Positions 1 through 7,113 of a stretch of DNA of 8,900 nt are shown here, piece after piece; position 1 is the stretch's first letter; each line of letters starts with the position of its first letter. The stretch comes from a virus (lineage: Duplodnaviria > Heunggongvirae > Uroviricota > Caudoviricetes), in the IMG/VR virus record IMGVR_UViG_2703718832_000005. One strand, 5' to 3'. The translations under genes were made by a program, and so were the position numbers. Under the pieces are notes generated by a model, which did no database searches, was not told the DNA's origin, and worked only from the letters and a program-made list of their open reading frames with translations.

Positions 1-1248
1 ATGGCACTGAATATTCCATTCAGAAATGCGTACTATCGTTTTGCATCCAGTTACTCATTTCTCTTTTTTATTTCCTGGTCGCTGTGGTGGTCGTTATACG
101 CTATTTGGCTGAAAGGACATCTAGGGTTGACAGGGACGGAATTAGGTACACTTTATTCGGTCAACCAGTTTACCAGCATTCTATTTATGATGTTCTACGG
201 CATCGTTCAGGATAAACTCGGTCTGAAGAATCCGCTCATCTGGTGTATGAGTTTCATCCTGGTCTTGACCGGACCGTTTATGATTTACGTTTATGAACCG
301 TTACTGCAAAGCAATTTTTCTGTAGGTCTAATTCTGGGGGCGCTCTTTTTTGGCCTGGGGTATCTGGCGGGATGCGGTTTGCTTGACAGTTTCACCGAAA
401 AAATGGCGCGAAATTTTCATTTCGAATATGGAACAGCGCGCGCCTGGGGATCTTTTGGCTATGCTATTGGCGCGTTCTTTGCCGGCATATTTTTTAGTAT
501 CAGTCCCCATATCAACTTCTGGTTGGTCTCGCTATTTGGCGCTGTATTTATGATGATCAACATGTGTTTTAAAGATAAGGATCACCAGTGCGTAGCGGCG
601 GATGCGGGAGGGGTAAAAAAAGAGGATTTTATCGCAGTTTTCAAGGATCGAAACTTCTGGGTTTTCGTCATATTTATTGTGGGGACGTGGTCTTTCTATA
701 ACATTTTTGATCAACAACTTTTTCCTGTCTTTTATGCAGGTTTATTCGAATCACACGATGTAGGAACGCGCCTGTATGGTTATCTCAACTCATTCCAGGT
801 GGTACTCGAAGCGCTATGCATGGCGATTATTCCTTTCTTTGTGAATCGGGTAGGGCCAAAAAATACATTACTTATCGGTGTTGTGATTATGGCGTTGCGT
901 ATCCTTTCCTGCGCGCTGTTCGTTAACCCCTGGATTATTTCATTAGTGAAGCTGTTACATGCCATTGAGGTTCCACTTTGTGTCATATCCGTCTTCAAAT
1001 ACAGCGTGGCAAATTTTGATAAGCGCCTGTCGTCGACGATCTTTCTGATTGGTTTTCAAATTGCCAGTTCGCTTGGGATTGTGCTGCTTTCAACGCCGAC
1101 TGGGATACTCTTTGACCACGCAGGCTACCAGACAGTTTTCTTCGCAATTTCGGGTATTGTCTGCCTGATGTTGCTATTTGGCATTTTCTTCCTGAGTAAA
1201 AAACGCGAGCAAATAGTTATGGAAACGCCTGTACCTTCAGCAATATAG
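1..1248 (+). CDS. MFS oligosaccharide:H+ symporter, LacY/OHS family (host chromosomal gene)
   Basis: 415-aa ORF starting at window base 1 with many hydrophobic segments. Aligns by eye to LacY, including counterparts of E126/R144 (FTEK...GTARAWG), E269 (VVLEAL), R302 (MALRIL) and K319/H322/E325 (KLLHAIEVP). Substrate cannot be read from sequence. Confidence 0.85.
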   Translation: MALNIPFRNAYYRFASSYSFLFFISWSLWWSLYAIWLKGHLGLTGTELGTLYSVNQFTSILFMMFYGIVQDKLGLKNPLIWCMSFILVLTGPFMIYVYEPLLQSNFSVGLILGALFFGLGYLAGCGLLDSFTEKMARNFHFEYGTARAWGSFGYAIGAFFAGIFFSISPHINFWLVSLFGAVFMMINMCFKDKDHQCVAADAGGVKKEDFIAVFKDRNFWVFVIFIVGTWSFYNIFDQQLFPVFYAGLFESHDVGTRLYGYLNSFQVVLEALCMAIIPFFVNRVGPKNTLLIGVVIMALRILSCALFVNPWIISLVKLLHAIEVPLCVISVFKYSVANFDKRLSSTIFLIGFQIASSLGIVLLSTPTGILFDHAGYQTVFFAISGIVCLMLLFGIFFLSKKREQIVMETPVPSAI

Positions 1249-1775: not shown

Positions 1776-1976
1776 TTACCCATTAGCGCGGCTTAAGAGC
1801 TTATTTTTGAATTCACAATGGTCACGATATAACCATCTTGCTCGCCCGTGGATAACTTTGGCTTTTGGCAGGTCGCCGGACTTAATCCGGTCATAGATGA
1901 AGGTTTTACCGAAGCCAGTATCGGCCATGATGAATTTCAAATCAACCAGTGAATCAGGCTGTAGTTCGTGTTGCAT
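1776..1976 (-). CDS. Excisionase / AlpA-family small DNA-binding protein
   Basis: 66-aa ORF; the segment ...FIMADTGFGKTFIYDRIKSGDLPKAKVIHGRARWLYRDH... has the size and character of phage Xis/AlpA winged-helix proteins. It is the last gene of the - strand block, where lambdoid phages place xis. ATG at 1976-1974 with a modest SD (GGAG) upstream. Confidence 0.6.
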   Translation of the reverse strand: MQHELQPDSLVDLKFIMADTGFGKTFIYDRIKSGDLPKAKVIHGRARWLYRDHCEFKNKLLSRANG

Positions 1977-2084: not shown

Positions 2085-3368
2085 TTATTCGATACGCACT
2101 CCTGGTATTTCGCCTTTTGATATTGCTAAGTCATAAATTTGCGCAGCACTATACCCATCTCGCATCCATGAATCTAAGGCGCGAATAGCCTCGCTACGCT
2201 TTTTATCTTCTCTTTCATTTTTGATATCAACGAGGACATCAACGCAATTAAGGCATATGTGGATTTTGTCCTTACATTCGATCATGGCGGCTTTTCCATG
2301 ATTTCCGCCACACAGTGAGCATAAATCTTCAGGGTCTGGCTGGTATTTCTGTAACGTNNNNNNNNNNNNNNNNNNNNNNNNNNNNNNNNNNNNNNNNNNN
2401 NNNNNNNNNNNNNNNNNNNNNNNNNNNNNNNNNNNNNNNNNNNNNNNNNNNNNNNNNNNNNNNNNNNNNNNNNNNNNNNNNNNNNNNNNNNNNNNNNNNN
2501 NNNNNNNNNNNNNNNNNNNNNNNNNNNNNNNNNNNNNNNNNNNNNNNNNNNNNNNNNNNNNNNNNNNNNNNNNNNNNNNNNNNNNNNNNNNNNNNNNNNN
2601 NNNNNNNNNNNNNNNNNNNNNNNNNNNNNNNNNNNNNNNNNNNNNNNNNNNNNNACCTGGATATAAACTCTTTGCCGGCCCCCAGTAGCCATCTGTATTA
2701 ACACGCATAACCTCACAGCCATCAAAACCATCAGTTACAAGAACGTATTCATAAGGCTCCGGCATCCTTTTGCTTACCGGAATCCAACCATCCGGAGTTA
2801 CCGGAGAGTTGCCAGCCTGAACAGTAGGCATATCCGGACCTTTGCGAATCGCCCTGGCAAGATCGATTTGGTCGTCGTACAACCAGTCACCTGTTTGCGG
2901 ATGATTGGCTTCTGCCAATTGTGCAGCCCACTCCAGGCCGTCTTTGTGTCCTTGCAGATAGTCCAGCGGTAACTCATCACTATTACTTACAGGTTCGGCC
3001 TGAAGCATGGCGGCGCGATAGGCGTTCCAGCCGACAGCTTTTCCGTGTTCAAACGCGCTGTCAAAGTCATCATCAATTTCCATCGCAGCGGGCACAGATA
3101 CCGGCGCTGGCGGGGCGGTGTAGAGCGGCATTACCTCAATATTGAAGATATCCCCCTCGCTTGGACACGCCTCTGCGCTACCGTAAACCCAAGGGTGAAC
3201 GACTCCGTTACGCTTGTTGATTAATCTGTGCGCCCACGCCACAGGCTCCGCTTCGAGCGATGCCAGCGCGATACGCGCCAGCGCCGAAGCCTCACCGCAT
3301 TGAACGTGGTCAGTTTCGATAATTTGCTGTAACTGCTCTTTGGTGAATTCTTTGGTAATAGGGCTCAT
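2085..3368 (-). CDS. Phage ea-region protein, tentatively DUF551-like, with a CxxC...CxxC cluster in the C-terminal part; interrupted by an N-run
   Basis: Frame is open from the ATG at 3368 (SD GGGAGGA 7 nt upstream) to the N-run, and again from the N-run to the stop at 2085. The segment PEPYEYVLVTDGFDGCEVMRVNTDGYWG resembles DUF551 proteins of enterobacterial prophages (from memory). The C-terminal piece carries CSLCGG...HICLNC. Frame continuity across the 297 Ns cannot be verified. Confidence 0.5.
   Translation of the reverse strand: MSPITKEFTKEQLQQIIETDHVQCGEASALARIALASLEAEPVAWAHRLINKRNGVVHPWVYGSAEACPSEGDIFNIEVMPLYTAPPAPVSVPAAMEIDDDFDSAFEHGKAVGWNAYRAAMLQAEPVSNSDELPLDYLQGHKDGLEWAAQLAEANHPQTGDWLYDDQIDLARAIRKGPDMPTVQAGNSPVTPDGWIPVSKRMPEPYEYVLVTDGFDGCEVMRVNTDGYWGPAKSLYPGXXXXXXXXXXXXXXXXXXXXXXXXXXXXXXXXXXXXXXXXXXXXXXXXXXXXXXXXXXXXXXXXXXXXXXXXXXXXXXXXXXXXXXXXXXXXXXXXXXXTLQKYQPDPEDLCSLCGGNHGKAAMIECKDKIHICLNCVDVLVDIKNEREDKKRSEAIRALDSWMRDGYSAAQIYDLAISKGEIPGVRIE
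2358..2654. other. Run of 297 N (unresolved or masked sequence)
   Basis: Literal n characters in the sequence. Length is a multiple of 3, so the ORF track reads through as 99 X residues, but the true content is unknown. Confidence 0.99.
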
Positions 3369-3591: not shown

Positions 3592-4137
3592 TCACTCCCC
3601 CTTCACGCCAATGCCAGCGTCGCGGTCTAAACGCTCAATTTCCGCCAAAATAAGTGCCCCTGCTTTTACCAGGTTGCGACGACGGGTTTTAGGTTTCCAC
3701 CAGGACGCATCCCACGGCCATCCCCACGGCTTGCCACCATTGCGGTTTACTGTTCCGGTTTCGTTGATGTAGCAAACCGCCGCCATTGCCAGTTCGCCGT
3801 TGCAGTGCTCGTCGTCATGCTCTGGCGTCCATCCCTCAATGGTTTTCTGCCGCTGGCGTTCTGCTACCACATCAAGAATTGCGGGATTGAATGCGCCCCC
3901 CTCCAGTTCTGCTATGCGCTTCTCTGCGGATTCCAACTCATCCAGCAGCGCCAGCACGGTAGTGGGGTTTGCTGCGGAGTTCAGCGCGTTCAAGGCAGTG
4001 ATATCTGCATCAAGCTGAGTTCCTTCTGCCAGTGAGATATCGAAAATGTCATCAGGCGGCATAACACTAAGGCGCTCATGTGCGCCAACTGCTGCCGCTG
4101 CGATTTCACGCAGCGCCTGTTTGTCGATGTTGCTCAT
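3592..4137 (-). CDS. Ea22-like protein with a DUF550-like (dATP/dGTP diphosphohydrolase N-domain-like) C-terminal region
   Basis: 181 aa. The N-terminus MSNIDKQALREIAAAA...VLALLDELE is Ea22-like and paralogous to the N-terminus of the 4403-5047 gene. The C-terminal part WTPEHDDEHCNGELAMAAVCY...WPWDASWWKP resembles DUF550 (from memory). ATGA overlap with the upstream gene at 4134-4137. Confidence 0.65.
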   Translation of the reverse strand: MSNIDKQALREIAAAAVGAHERLSVMPPDDIFDISLAEGTQLDADITALNALNSAANPTTVLALLDELESAEKRIAELEGGAFNPAILDVVAERQRQKTIEGWTPEHDDEHCNGELAMAAVCYINETGTVNRNGGKPWGWPWDASWWKPKTRRRNLVKAGALILAEIERLDRDAGIGVKGE

Positions 4138-4406
4138 TGGGCGGTTCCTTCGTAACCGATGGCTTCTGCAATTTCAGCAAGTGTCTCTGCACTTTCACCC
4201 ACTGGCTCATTCATCCAGTCGAAGGAAACAAGCTTACCGCCTTCGATAACGCCGATGTTGAAATCATCACTACCTTGTGTTTTCAGACCATGCTTGATTG
4301 CCTTATCGCGCTTATCGAAGTCAACGCCGTCTGTCGTGTATTCAACTCCATGGCCTTTCTCGTTGCACCACCAGTACTGCTGAATAACGATGTATGATTT
4401 GCTCAT
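4134..4406 (-). CDS. Hypothetical phage protein (90 aa)
   Basis: ATG at 4406-4404 with SD AAGGAG 7 nt upstream. ATGA overlaps with both neighbours (4403-4406 and 4134-4137). Acidic C-terminus. Confidence 0.6.
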   Translation of the reverse strand: MSKSYIVIQQYWWCNEKGHGVEYTTDGVDFDKRDKAIKHGLKTQGSDDFNIGVIEGGKLVSFDWMNEPVGESAETLAEIAEAIGYEGTAQ

Positions 4407-5047
4407 GACTGCACTCCTTTGCGAATTTGCTCCCTGAACAAGCGGGCTGAGACGATGATGTCTCTGATGCGTACTGATTTTTCGTCGAACTGCTCACCAC
4501 CGTTTTTAATATGCGCATCCAGTTCTGCACTGTGATGCTGGATGAAAGCGTTGAGGCACTGCGCCCGTACTTCAGCCAGAAAAGCATCGGTGGCTGGGGT
4601 TTTGTTATCTGACTCCAGCCACTGGTTGTAGTAATAATCGAACATGCCAGTAGGATAACCACATCCGCTGTGCACGTGGTCTTTCATAGCAGAACCACAC
4701 ATGCAGTAGTCATTGTCAGTATTACTAATGATGTCGATAAGTTGCTGTGTCCGTTGCTTCAACATCGCATTCTCCGCCGCCAGCGCCGAAAACTTCTCGT
4801 GTGCCAACTTAACAGCTGCATCAGCCTGCTTAATTGACTCAGTCGCTTTCTGGTGGTCTTCAGCCAGCCCTGCTAAATCAGCCTCCAGTTCGGCTAGGCG
4901 TTCATTTAATGCATCTCGTTCATCCAGTAGAGCCAGCACAACCTGAGGTGTGACTTTCATACGAAATGCCAGCAATTTTTGAGGTGTTGCTACTGTTTCA
5001 ATTGCTACTGCTGCCTCACGCAGTACCTGATAGTCAATCTTGCTCAC
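4403..5047 (-). CDS. Ea22-like protein with a Cys/His-rich C-terminal domain
   Basis: The track ORF starts at a GTG at 5068, but the GTG at 5047-5045 has a strong SD (AAGGAGG) 7 nt upstream and yields [13 protein letters not shown]..., which matches the Ea22-like N-terminus of the paralog. Coiled-coil middle, then [24 protein letters not shown] overlap with the upstream ORF. Confidence 0.65.
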
Positions 5048-5229
5048 TGGTTGCCTCCTTTGCGCCACATCGCATTCAGATATTTGTTGTCATTAACAGA
5101 ACCGAAACTCTTTCTCTTAAGCAATTCCTCTCTCGATGGCATTGGCTTTACGCGTTGGCGAATAATCATTTCTGCCGGAAGAATGCCGGGATTGTATGCA
5201 AGTCCTCTCATGGTAAATTCCTCAGTCAT
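5044..5229 (-). CDS. Hypothetical small phage protein (61 aa)
   Basis: Likely the short form ([15 protein letters not shown]...) of track ORF 5044..5364. Its ATG at 5229-5227 sits 5 nt upstream of the stop of the 5222..5518 ORF (ATGACTGA); the longer N-terminal extension is S/T/H-rich and overlaps that ORF. No strong SD, so start is uncertain. Confidence 0.4.
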
Positions 5230-5518
5230 TACTGATAGCGCCATAGCGTGAGCGGTAATTACGCAGGCGCGGGTCGATATATTCAGGGAAGTGGGTATAT
5301 GTGGCTTTGCGGAATGGTCGGATTGATGTCTGGTAAATTCGCTCGCGTTCTTCTTTCTCTGCAAGCCATATACAATGGCGAAATTCCTTTTCCTCTTTCG
5401 TTTCCTGCGGTAGCGACATTATCAGGTCGTAGTTTTTTCTGAATTTATCCAGCACCTCCGATACGGAATTGCCGGAACAGCGGCGCGGGTCATCCGCACC
5501 ATACAGAGGCGCTGGCAT
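5222..5518 (-). CDS. Hypothetical phage protein (98 aa)
   Basis: ATG at 5518 with a weak SD (AAGG). Protein-like mixed charged composition. Lies 23 nt downstream of the SSB-like gene stop. Confidence 0.5.
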
Positions 5519-5541
5519 AATGGGAGCCTTATTTTCAGTAA

Positions 5542-6129
5542 TCAGAAAGGAGGGTAATCGTTCTGGCTGTAACCATAATCATCTGCATGATTCTGGCTTA
5601 CGTTTTTAGAGCGATTGTCTTTATCTTTGAGATTGGCAACCATGTTGGCGATAGTTTCTGGTTGCTTGCCTTCTGCCTTTTCTTTAAGGGTTTGACCTGT
5701 TTGTGCAATAAACGGGATGCGTATTTCCATCTGGTAGCTGTCTGCGCCAGTCTTTTTGTTTGTGGTTAATACTTTCTGAAGCACTAACCCGATTTTCTTT
5801 CCATGAAATTCAGGTGCAACAAATTTACTGGCGGAAACCATATGCTGCGTTAATTGTCCAATCCCGGCACACCCCATCATGGCGTGAACGACATTTGCGC
5901 CAAATTTGTTTTCCGTTCCGTCATTTTTCTGAACACAGACGCTAAGATATTGGATTTTACGTCCGTCGTCGGATTCGCCAGAAAACTCAATAAATTTGGC
6001 TCCTTTTTCTGATTGCTTTAGTTCTGCTTCAGTAATGGTAATGATATGAGCGCCAGTTTCGTTAATAAAACCACCTTGCCCTGCGGTCAGTGCTGCTTCT
6101 TCGTTATAAGTAAAAATCACGTTGCTCAT
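5542..6129 (-). CDS. Phage single-strand DNA-binding-like protein (Sak4-associated), with an SSB-type C-terminal tip
   Basis: 195 aa, ATGA-coupled to the upstream ATPase gene (6126-6129). The C-terminus ...DDYGYSQNDYPPF resembles the acidic/aromatic tip of bacterial and phage SSBs (E. coli SSB ends DDDIPF). OB-fold not verified. Confidence 0.5.
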   Translation of the reverse strand: MSNVIFTYNEEAALTAGQGGFINETGAHIITITEAELKQSEKGAKFIEFSGESDDGRKIQYLSVCVQKNDGTENKFGANVVHAMMGCAGIGQLTQHMVSASKFVAPEFHGKKIGLVLQKVLTTNKKTGADSYQMEIRIPFIAQTGQTLKEKAEGKQPETIANMVANLKDKDNRSKNVSQNHADDYGYSQNDYPPF

Positions 6130-6806
6130 GCGGCGTTTTCCTTAATTTGATGAACATTATTGATGCCGTAGTAATCACAAACAGTGGCATCGACGAAAGA
6201 GAGATCGTTATCAATCTCATTGGAATCAAACATTCCCATTGGGGATTTAACAGTGTCTGCACCGTTGTTTTTCGTGGTGAAAAAGAACTGGTCATCGCGG
6301 GTAAGAGTGCGAAGAACTATAGTAAACATGCCTTCGACAGTGATTTTCTCGTCCAGCATTTTGCCGATAGTTTTCATTTTCACGCGCCCCATAGGGGTTT
6401 CTTCGGTGTGCGCAAGAAAATAGACTCTCAGGTCATCAGGTGCATCCTGTGCAGCCTTAATCACCTCCCATGCGTGGCGGCCTATCTCAGTAAATTTATC
6501 AAACGATTTTTCTTCTGAGCGGCGCATAAACTCATTGCTCATCACATACTGGAAGTCATCAACAATAACGATTCTTTTCCCGTATTCGTGAGCACGCTTA
6601 ATTACGGCAACTATTACGTCCCATTTGTCAGTGGTAACTACGGTTCCTTTTTTTGCTCTGGCATCCCATGCCAGCCATTCTTTTGATTTAAATGGTAGCG
6701 GCTTGCCTATTGGTTTTATAAGTATTGCTTCCTCTGGATTGATATTTCTCATGCTGGTTGATTTTCCGGTGCCAGACTCACCGAGTATTAATGTCGCAGT
6801 TCCCAT
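6126..6806 (-). CDS. Sak4-like RecA-fold ATPase (AAA_24-type phage single-strand annealing/recombination protein)
   Basis: 226 aa. Walker A GESGTGKST near the N-terminus, Walker B RIVIVDD, no ABC signature LSGGQ. Size and position (after kil, before an SSB-like gene) match phage Sak4 core-only RecA homologs. SD GAGGTG upstream of the ATG at 6806. Confidence 0.6.
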   Translation of the reverse strand: MGTATLILGESGTGKSTSMRNINPEEAILIKPIGKPLPFKSKEWLAWDARAKKGTVVTTDKWDVIVAVIKRAHEYGKRIVIVDDFQYVMSNEFMRRSEEKSFDKFTEIGRHAWEVIKAAQDAPDDLRVYFLAHTEETPMGRVKMKTIGKMLDEKITVEGMFTIVLRTLTRDDQFFFTTKNNGADTVKSPMGMFDSNEIDNDLSFVDATVCDYYGINNVHQIKENAA

Positions 6807-6814
6807 AATTCACC

Positions 6815-7003
6815 TCAGAATGGTAATTCGGATGGGGAGGAAAGAAATTCGCGCTCATTCATGCGCTCTCTTTGTGCTTGCCATAAACAAAGTTGTTTCT
6901 TTGATTTATCTCCCGCTTTACGCCAGTAACGAGCCTCAGCAATGTGATATTCTCTTTTTAATCGACTTAACTCTGGAGTTTTCGCCAGCTCTACCGGAAT
7001 CAT
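6815..7003 (-). CDS. Hypothetical small basic protein (62 aa)
   Basis: ATG at 7003-7001 with strong SD (GGAGG, 5-nt spacer), ATGA-coupled to the kil stop. Lys/Arg-rich sequence MIPVELAKTPELSRLKREYHIAEARYWRKAGDKSKKQ... Confidence 0.5.
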   Translation of the reverse strand: MIPVELAKTPELSRLKREYHIAEARYWRKAGDKSKKQLCLWQAQRERMNEREFLSSPSELPF

Positions 7004-7113
7004 TTAGACCTCCATTTTCTGTAGGCTTCGACGGCCTCACCAAACATCTTTTCATCGCCAATAAAAGTGGCGATAGTGAATTTAGTCTGAATAGCCATAA
7101 GTGTTTTATCCAT
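7000..7113 (-). CDS. kil: Kil-like host cell-division (FtsZ) inhibitor
   Basis: 37-aa product MDKTLMAIQTKFTIATFIGDEKMFGEAVEAYRKWRSK matches my recollection of lambda Kil (MDQTLMAIQTKFTIATFIGDEKMF...). ATG at 7113 with SD AGGAG lying inside the cIII coding sequence. The track's 67-aa version (7000..7203) is an N-terminal extension overlapping cIII in another frame. Confidence 0.65.
   Translation of the reverse strand: MDKTLMAIQTKFTIATFIGDEKMFGEAVEAYRKWRSK

Follow-up and report, generated by a model that had tools for sequence, protein, structure and literature searches.

The HK620-type recombination module hkaM-sak4-ssb-abc2 in an Escherichia coli prophage

The DNA analysed here, referred to below as the window, is a stretch of 8,900 nucleotides (nt) from IMG/VR virus record IMGVR_UViG_2703718832_000005, and it contains, complete and inside an Escherichia coli prophage, the four-gene module hkaM-sak4-ssb-abc2. 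The conserved core of the module is a pair of genes encoding Sak4, a RecA-fold ATPase, and its cognate SSB (a protein that binds single-stranded DNA), to which abc2 is a separable add-on. With a probability of about 0.95, the locus belongs to an E. coli prophage of the HK620/P22-like (Lederbergvirus-type) kind, serves there as the module for homologous recombination in the early-left region (pL operon) and works by the mechanism proposed below. The module is already known, the exact pair having been purified and characterised in 2018 (PMC5928155), and the discovery value of its presence here is small. The value lies rather in annotation, since public labels lag behind the experiments on a working recombineering pair: RefSeq lists Sak4 as an 'ATP-binding protein' and the SSB as a 'hypothetical protein' or 'DUF669'.

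A first-pass annotation of this DNA, made from the sequence alone, had described a coupled ATPase and SSB-like pair in the position that gam-bet-exo occupies in phage lambda, and had read it as a Sak4 plus cognate SSB annealase. The pair does occupy that position, both open reading frames (ORFs) were found on the minus strand, and the ATGA at their junction is shared. The features of the module, with protein lengths in amino acids (aa), are:

6815-7003, minus strand: hkaM, a 62-aa orphan and the first gene of the module, with no assigned function
6126-6806, minus strand: sak4 (hkaL), a 226-aa RecA-core-only ATP-dependent single-strand annealing protein
6756-6782, minus strand: Walker A (P-loop) GESGTGKST, Sak4 residues 9-17, from sequence
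6555-6572, minus strand: Walker B IVIVDD, Sak4 residues 79-84, from sequence
6126-6129, minus strand: ATGA overlap of the sak4 stop and the ssb start (...GCC GCA TGA / ATG AGC AAC)
5542-6129, minus strand: ssb (hkaK), a 195-aa atypical phage SSB (SSB-HK620 or 'SSB-2'; DUF669/N4 gp45-like), the cognate partner of Sak4
5545-5562, minus strand: NDYPPF tip of the SSB, Sak4-recruiting motif, from sequence
5222-5518, minus strand: abc2 (hkaJ), anti-RecBCD protein 2, the RecBCD-handling function of the module

The Sak4 ATPase and the layout of the module

In a megablast search of positions 5200-7300 against phage records, HK620 matched 95% of the query with 98.3% identity, and APC_JM3.2 matched 100% of it with 98.4%. 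The recombination module of HK620 (Clark 2001; Hutinet et al. 2018, PMC5928155) reads hkaM-hkaL(sak4)-hkaK(ssb)-hkaJ(abc2), and the window has the same genes, the same order and the same overlaps. The product of ORF 6815-7003 is identical to HkaM at 61/62 residues (98%), that of ORF 6126-6806 to HkaL (Sak4) at 226/226 (100%), that of ORF 5542-6129 to HkaK (SSB) at 193/195 (99%) with the NDYPPF tail intact, and that of ORF 5222-5518 to HkaJ (Abc2) at 95/98 (97%). Together with the PHROG matches of the two core proteins, to PHROG 2872 ('Sak4-like', E 3e-108) for the ATPase and to PHROG 743 ('SSB', E 6e-67) for its partner, these identities bear out the first-pass reading of the pair and are not a matter of chance motifs.

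The assignment of the ATPase is supported by further profile and fold comparisons. The protein also matches PHROG 124 (E 2e-5), scores 30 bits against Pfam AAA_24 (cutoff 27 bits), a profile that had been proposed for its verification, and aligns with N4 gp44 by hhalign at 97.9%. The Walker A and Walker B motifs lie in the 226-aa protein as originally read, and their residues G9, S11, G12, G14 and K15, and D83 and D84, respectively, are invariant across 41 Sak4 homologues. Sequence searches of the PDB with Sak4, as a single sequence or as a family profile, returned no match, and fold comparison alone was informative: a Sak4 of solved structure comes nearest, followed by RAD51 paralogs and RecA, and not a kinase or an ABC protein. 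Sak4 of staphylococcal phage 52A (PDB 8RC5) shares just 13% sequence identity with the protein in the window. The fold is that of the RecA/Rad51 core, without an N- or C-terminal accessory DNA-binding domain. It could be argued that the ATPase comes from a different P-loop family, such as the kinases or the ABC or AAA+ proteins, and that its likeness to Sak4 is a mere coincidence of Walker motifs, but this explanation is refuted in practice by the complete identity to HkaL and by Sak4 being the nearest fold, and we give it almost no weight. A PADLOC match of Sak4 was dismissed, as it covers the P-loop only.

The properties of the pair are known from the work of Hutinet et al., who purified HK620 Sak4 (HkaL) and HkaK (PMC5928155). 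HK620 Sak4 required ATP both for binding to single-stranded DNA (ssDNA) and for the annealing of complementary strands, and no strand exchange was observed with the Sak4-SSB pair (PMC5928155). HkaK behaved as a genuine SSB, with an apparent size of a tetramer, a shift of ssDNA and a block of RecA-mediated annealing (PMC5928155). Recombineering by Sak4, 15-fold over background, rose to about 210-fold with HkaK (PMC5928155). When HkaK lacked its last six residues, NDYPPF, recombineering fell 10-fold and annealing was inhibited rather than stimulated, which is to say that Sak4 was no longer stimulated, either in vivo or in vitro; moreover, SSB-coated ssDNA was bound by Sak4 only when the SSB tail was present (PMC5928155). 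The recombineering assay with both genes, which the first-pass annotation had proposed as a test, and the deletion of the SSB tip had thus already been published for the HK620 pair. As these activities were demonstrated on a sequence-identical protein, Sak4 of the window would be expected to carry out ATP-dependent ssDNA binding and annealing with no strand exchange, and the SSB, 99% identical to the tested protein, to bind ssDNA and to stimulate Sak4 through its tail (PMC5928155).

Every phage gene of the window is encoded on the minus strand, and the ATGA overlap probably couples the translation of ssb to that of sak4. Prophages of Xenorhabdus and Arsenophonus, with SSBs that share 56-61% identity with that of the window, have the same gene order and 4-nt overlap, and in N4 gp44 (Sak4) is likewise followed by gp45 (SSB). 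An adjacent cognate ssb accompanies about 80% of sak4 genes, as it does here. The small protein HkaM matches PHROG 1723 (E 1.6e-33), a family whose 'recombinase' label is merely positional, and has no Pfam match; hkaM was dispensable for the stimulation of recombineering (PMC5928155). No NCBIfam model was found for any of the module proteins, and a promoter and terminator scan of positions 5000-8900 gave nothing beyond chance within the module.

The SSB partner and its C-terminal tip

The partner protein has a mass of 21.3 kDa and terminates in ...DDYGYSQNDYPPF (...YSQNDYPPF), which agrees with the 195-aa protein with an SSB-like DYPPF tip that had been described at first. In an AlphaFold2 model of the protein (predicted local distance difference test score, pLDDT, 79.8) the core is a beta-barrel that carries a helical insertion, and residues 177-193, where the pLDDT is below 50, form a disordered tail. 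This core is an oligonucleotide/oligosaccharide-binding fold (OB-fold), so that both the OB-fold and, in the 99%-identical HK620 protein, the ssDNA binding that the first-pass reading called for are present (PMC5928155). When the model was compared with predicted viral structures (Foldseek, BFVD), DUF669 proteins were the best matches (E 8.5e-15); N4-like phage SSBs matched with E values of 2e-9 to 3.5e-9.

No sequence-profile match links the protein to the canonical bacterial SSB family (Pfam SSB), and PDB sequence searches, with the single sequence or with the family profile, gave noise and nothing significant. By sequence the HK620-type SSB is weakly linked to N4 gp45, and structure shows the link more clearly: in hhalign a shallow profile of 34 sequences gave a probability of 4%, whereas a profile of 98 sequences gave 50% (E 1.6e-4, 153 columns), and the published HHsearch value is above 95% (PMC5928155). 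PrgE of plasmid pCF10 (PDB 8S4S), an atypical OB-fold SSB, is 12% identical to the SSB in the window; PrgE forms a filament of monomers on DNA and binds double-stranded DNA equally well, whereas SSB-HK620 is tetramer-sized and carries an SSB-type C-terminal tip.

Published descriptions of SSB-HK620 are at odds with one another. Hutinet et al. regarded HkaK as a distant SSB homologue, connected through intermediates (PMC5928155). Our structural comparisons, made with a predicted model, support an OB-fold core that would be closer to PrgE, an atypical SSB, and to proteins of the DUF669/N4-like kind than to the canonical tetrameric SSB, and they provide a small clarification of that disagreement. 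The HK620-type SSB and canonical SSB may have in common just the generic OB-fold architecture together with a C-terminal tip that arose by convergence, an explanation that we hold to be possible, if on the doubtful side.

The tail has 3 acidic residues among its last 13 and ends in an SSB-like hydrophobic tip, whose terminal phenylalanine (F195) is invariant in 34 close homologues. An exhaustive profile search for the SSB family yielded 664 cluster representatives, and tips were counted in those of the best 150 that are full length, 134 in number. Phenylalanine is the C-terminal residue in 91/134 of these and the tip is exactly DDDIPF in 34/134; DDDIPF, the family consensus, is also the tip of E. 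coli SSB. In the HK620 group DDDIPF gives way to NDYPPF or to other endings, among them TPF, APF and QDF. The hydrophobic tip is therefore a trait of the SSB family, with NDYPPF as a local variant. One could imagine that the departure from DDDIPF is an adaptation which keeps the recruitment of Sak4 private and insulates the phage SSB from the host tip-binding proteins RecO, PriA, ExoI and chi, though we regard this as a speculative and unlikely proposal. Conversely, relatives that retain DDDIPF may hijack these host SSB-tip binders. In either case, the sequence of the tip would tune the wiring of the phage annealing pathway into the replication and repair network of the host.

RecBCD handling and the proposed pathway

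The first-pass annotation had noted the absence of a Gam homologue, and had asked how RecBCD is handled. The absence holds: Gam, Red-beta, RecT, Erf and Exo gave no Pfam match in 13 phage ORFs of the window and no PHROG match in ten of them. The question, however, does not stand, because the gene adjoining ssb is abc2, which encodes a P22-type RecBCD modifier and starts 23 nt past the SSB stop codon. Its product matches Pfam PF11043 (Anti-RecBCD_p2) with E 4.4e-63 (full length, positions 1-97 of 97), PHROG 656 with E 1e-56 and, over its full length, the P22 Abc2 chain of PDB 8B1T, a complex with RecBCD, with E 1.8e-57. Abc2 binds RecC and prevents activation by Chi (PMC12315714), and it makes RecBCD an end-processing enzyme that serves the phage pathway (PMC5928155). 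By analogy with P22, Abc2 presumably cooperates with Sak4 on double-strand ends by feeding it substrate.

No abc2 follows the sak4-ssb pair in the Xenorhabdus and Arsenophonus prophages. At one locus (L004, 3327-4606) the next gene is of the PAPS-reductase family, and at another (L005, 3324-4561) AntA/ANT antirepressor-family genes lie near the pair.

We propose the following pathway for the module, which is presumably expressed in the present prophage. Abc2 would bind RecC of the host RecBCD, keep the enzyme from degrading the phage DNA ends and block Chi activation, so that 3' single strands are produced. The resected ssDNA would be coated by the phage SSB, which has an OB-fold and is reported to be a tetramer; once bound to DNA, this SSB would recruit the RecA-core-only ATPase Sak4 through its NDYPPF tip. 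ATP-bound Sak4 would then anneal complementary SSB-coated strands, resulting in single-strand-annealing recombination, and the outcome probably also aids concatemer formation and replication.

This arrangement shares features with other early-left modules. The arf-erf-abc1-abc2 genes of P22 have the same position in the pL operon and a homologous abc2, and both phages use a modified RecBCD and no phage exonuclease. In P22, however, annealing is carried out by the Rad52-like Erf rather than by a RecA-fold, ATP-dependent Sak4 (PMC5928155); here ssb occupies the slot of abc1, and hkaM is unrelated to arf of P22 (PMC5928155). Lambda Red (gam-bet-exo) and RecET of Rac have in common with the present module the genomic slot, single-strand-annealing recombination and recombineering, and the neutralisation of RecBCD. 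The scanned ORFs of the window gave no matches to Gam, to an Exo/RecE nuclease or to the Rad52-like Beta/RecT, however, and annealing here requires ATP and a dedicated SSB. Whereas Gam of lambda blocks RecBCD, Abc2 re-programs it.

No observation speaks against the assignment, although it is qualified by four points. The SSB protein has no Pfam match at E<=10, neither to SSB nor to DUF669 (PF05037). DUF669 is detected in relatives only below threshold, in 8/34 close homologues (best E 0.005) and in 1/98 family representatives; NCBI names the homologues 'DUF669 domain-containing', a label that is unconfirmed by sequence since the Pfam DUF669 hidden Markov model does not recognise the SSB. The SSB also differs from the tested HK620 protein at two residues, E153 in place of V and N166 in place of S, both outside the tip. 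Co-expression of abc2 did not stimulate oligonucleotide recombineering (PMC5928155). Finally, the window is one prophage end only, from which the completeness and the inducibility of the prophage cannot be deduced.

The last of these points bears on whether the genes might be relics that a decayed prophage has left behind, silent and now functionless. The window holds just the xis-proximal end of the prophage, with part of it masked by a run of 297 N, and in a comparison of the whole window with complete E. coli genomes none carries the exact mosaic over at least 80% of its length. Against decay, however, the four ORFs of the module are intact and full length, are 97-100% identical to those of a viable phage and have kept their start-stop overlaps, which makes it very unlikely that they are relics.

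A further consideration is whether, in the life cycle of the phage, the pair serves mainly replication, through the theta-to-sigma switch, concatemer formation or fork restart, and not genetic exchange. Mutants of staphylococcal phages in sak/sak4 and ssb barely form genome multimers (Neamah 2017, cited in PMC5928155), Rec modules have been implicated in the theta-to-sigma switch (PMC12315714), and the pair of N4 sits inside a replication gene cluster. Such a role is nevertheless compatible with annealing-based recombination, the activity demonstrated is annealing and recombineering, and the window holds nothing that would separate the two roles; we therefore consider it rather unlikely that replication is the main job, and favour a recombination module working by single-strand annealing.

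Prophage context and distribution

The sak4-ssb pair is present in 187/5426 complete E. coli genomes (about 3%), and the larger query of 5200-7300 had matches in 379 phage records, including many from Stx-converting phages. The surroundings of the module in the window are as follows.

1-1248, plus strand: oligosaccharide (LacY/CscB-type) major facilitator superfamily transporter, a host gene at the start of the window
1776-1976, minus strand: TorI-like excisionase, the entry to the prophage after about 500 nt of non-coding DNA
2085-3368, minus strand: 427-aa ORF in the slot of the DUF551/EaA-type genes of HK620 and APC_JM3.2
7106-7252, minus strand: cIII-equivalent ORF that overlaps Kil, annotated cIII in matching phage records

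There is no integrase in the window and no tRNA gene at the prophage junction or elsewhere in the window. The lack of an integrase fits the HK620 layout, in which attP separates int from the xis-like gene, an order that places int and xis at opposite ends of the prophage. Chi sites are also absent from the window, which is uninformative since about 0.3 would be expected by chance. The run of 297 N, at 2358-2654, masks the middle of the 427-aa ORF, so that this gene cannot be assessed. Two Ead/Ea22-like paralogues (3592-4137 and 4403-5068, minus strand) lie in the non-essential early-left region downstream of the module, with a 90-aa ORF (PHROG 26897, no assigned function) between them, and this mosaic of ead/ea genes is unlike that of HK620 and of APC_JM3.2. 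A PADLOC match of an Ead-like ORF to LmuB was dismissed as a coiled-coil match.

Kil (Pfam Lambda_Kil) immediately precedes the module on its upstream side. A gene for a 322-aa coiled-coil protein very rich in E, A, K and R (7277-8245, minus strand; PHROG 1376, function unknown) is located upstream of cIII, as in APC_JM3.2, where it has the annotation 'TolA'; in HK620 the hkaP region takes its place. The AT skew of this segment reaches -0.6. A TTG start at 8299 for this gene is probably wrong and ATG 8245 is to be preferred, since a terminator-like hairpin (8286-8265) lies inside the extension and the start at 8245 fits the size of the APC_JM3.2 gene.
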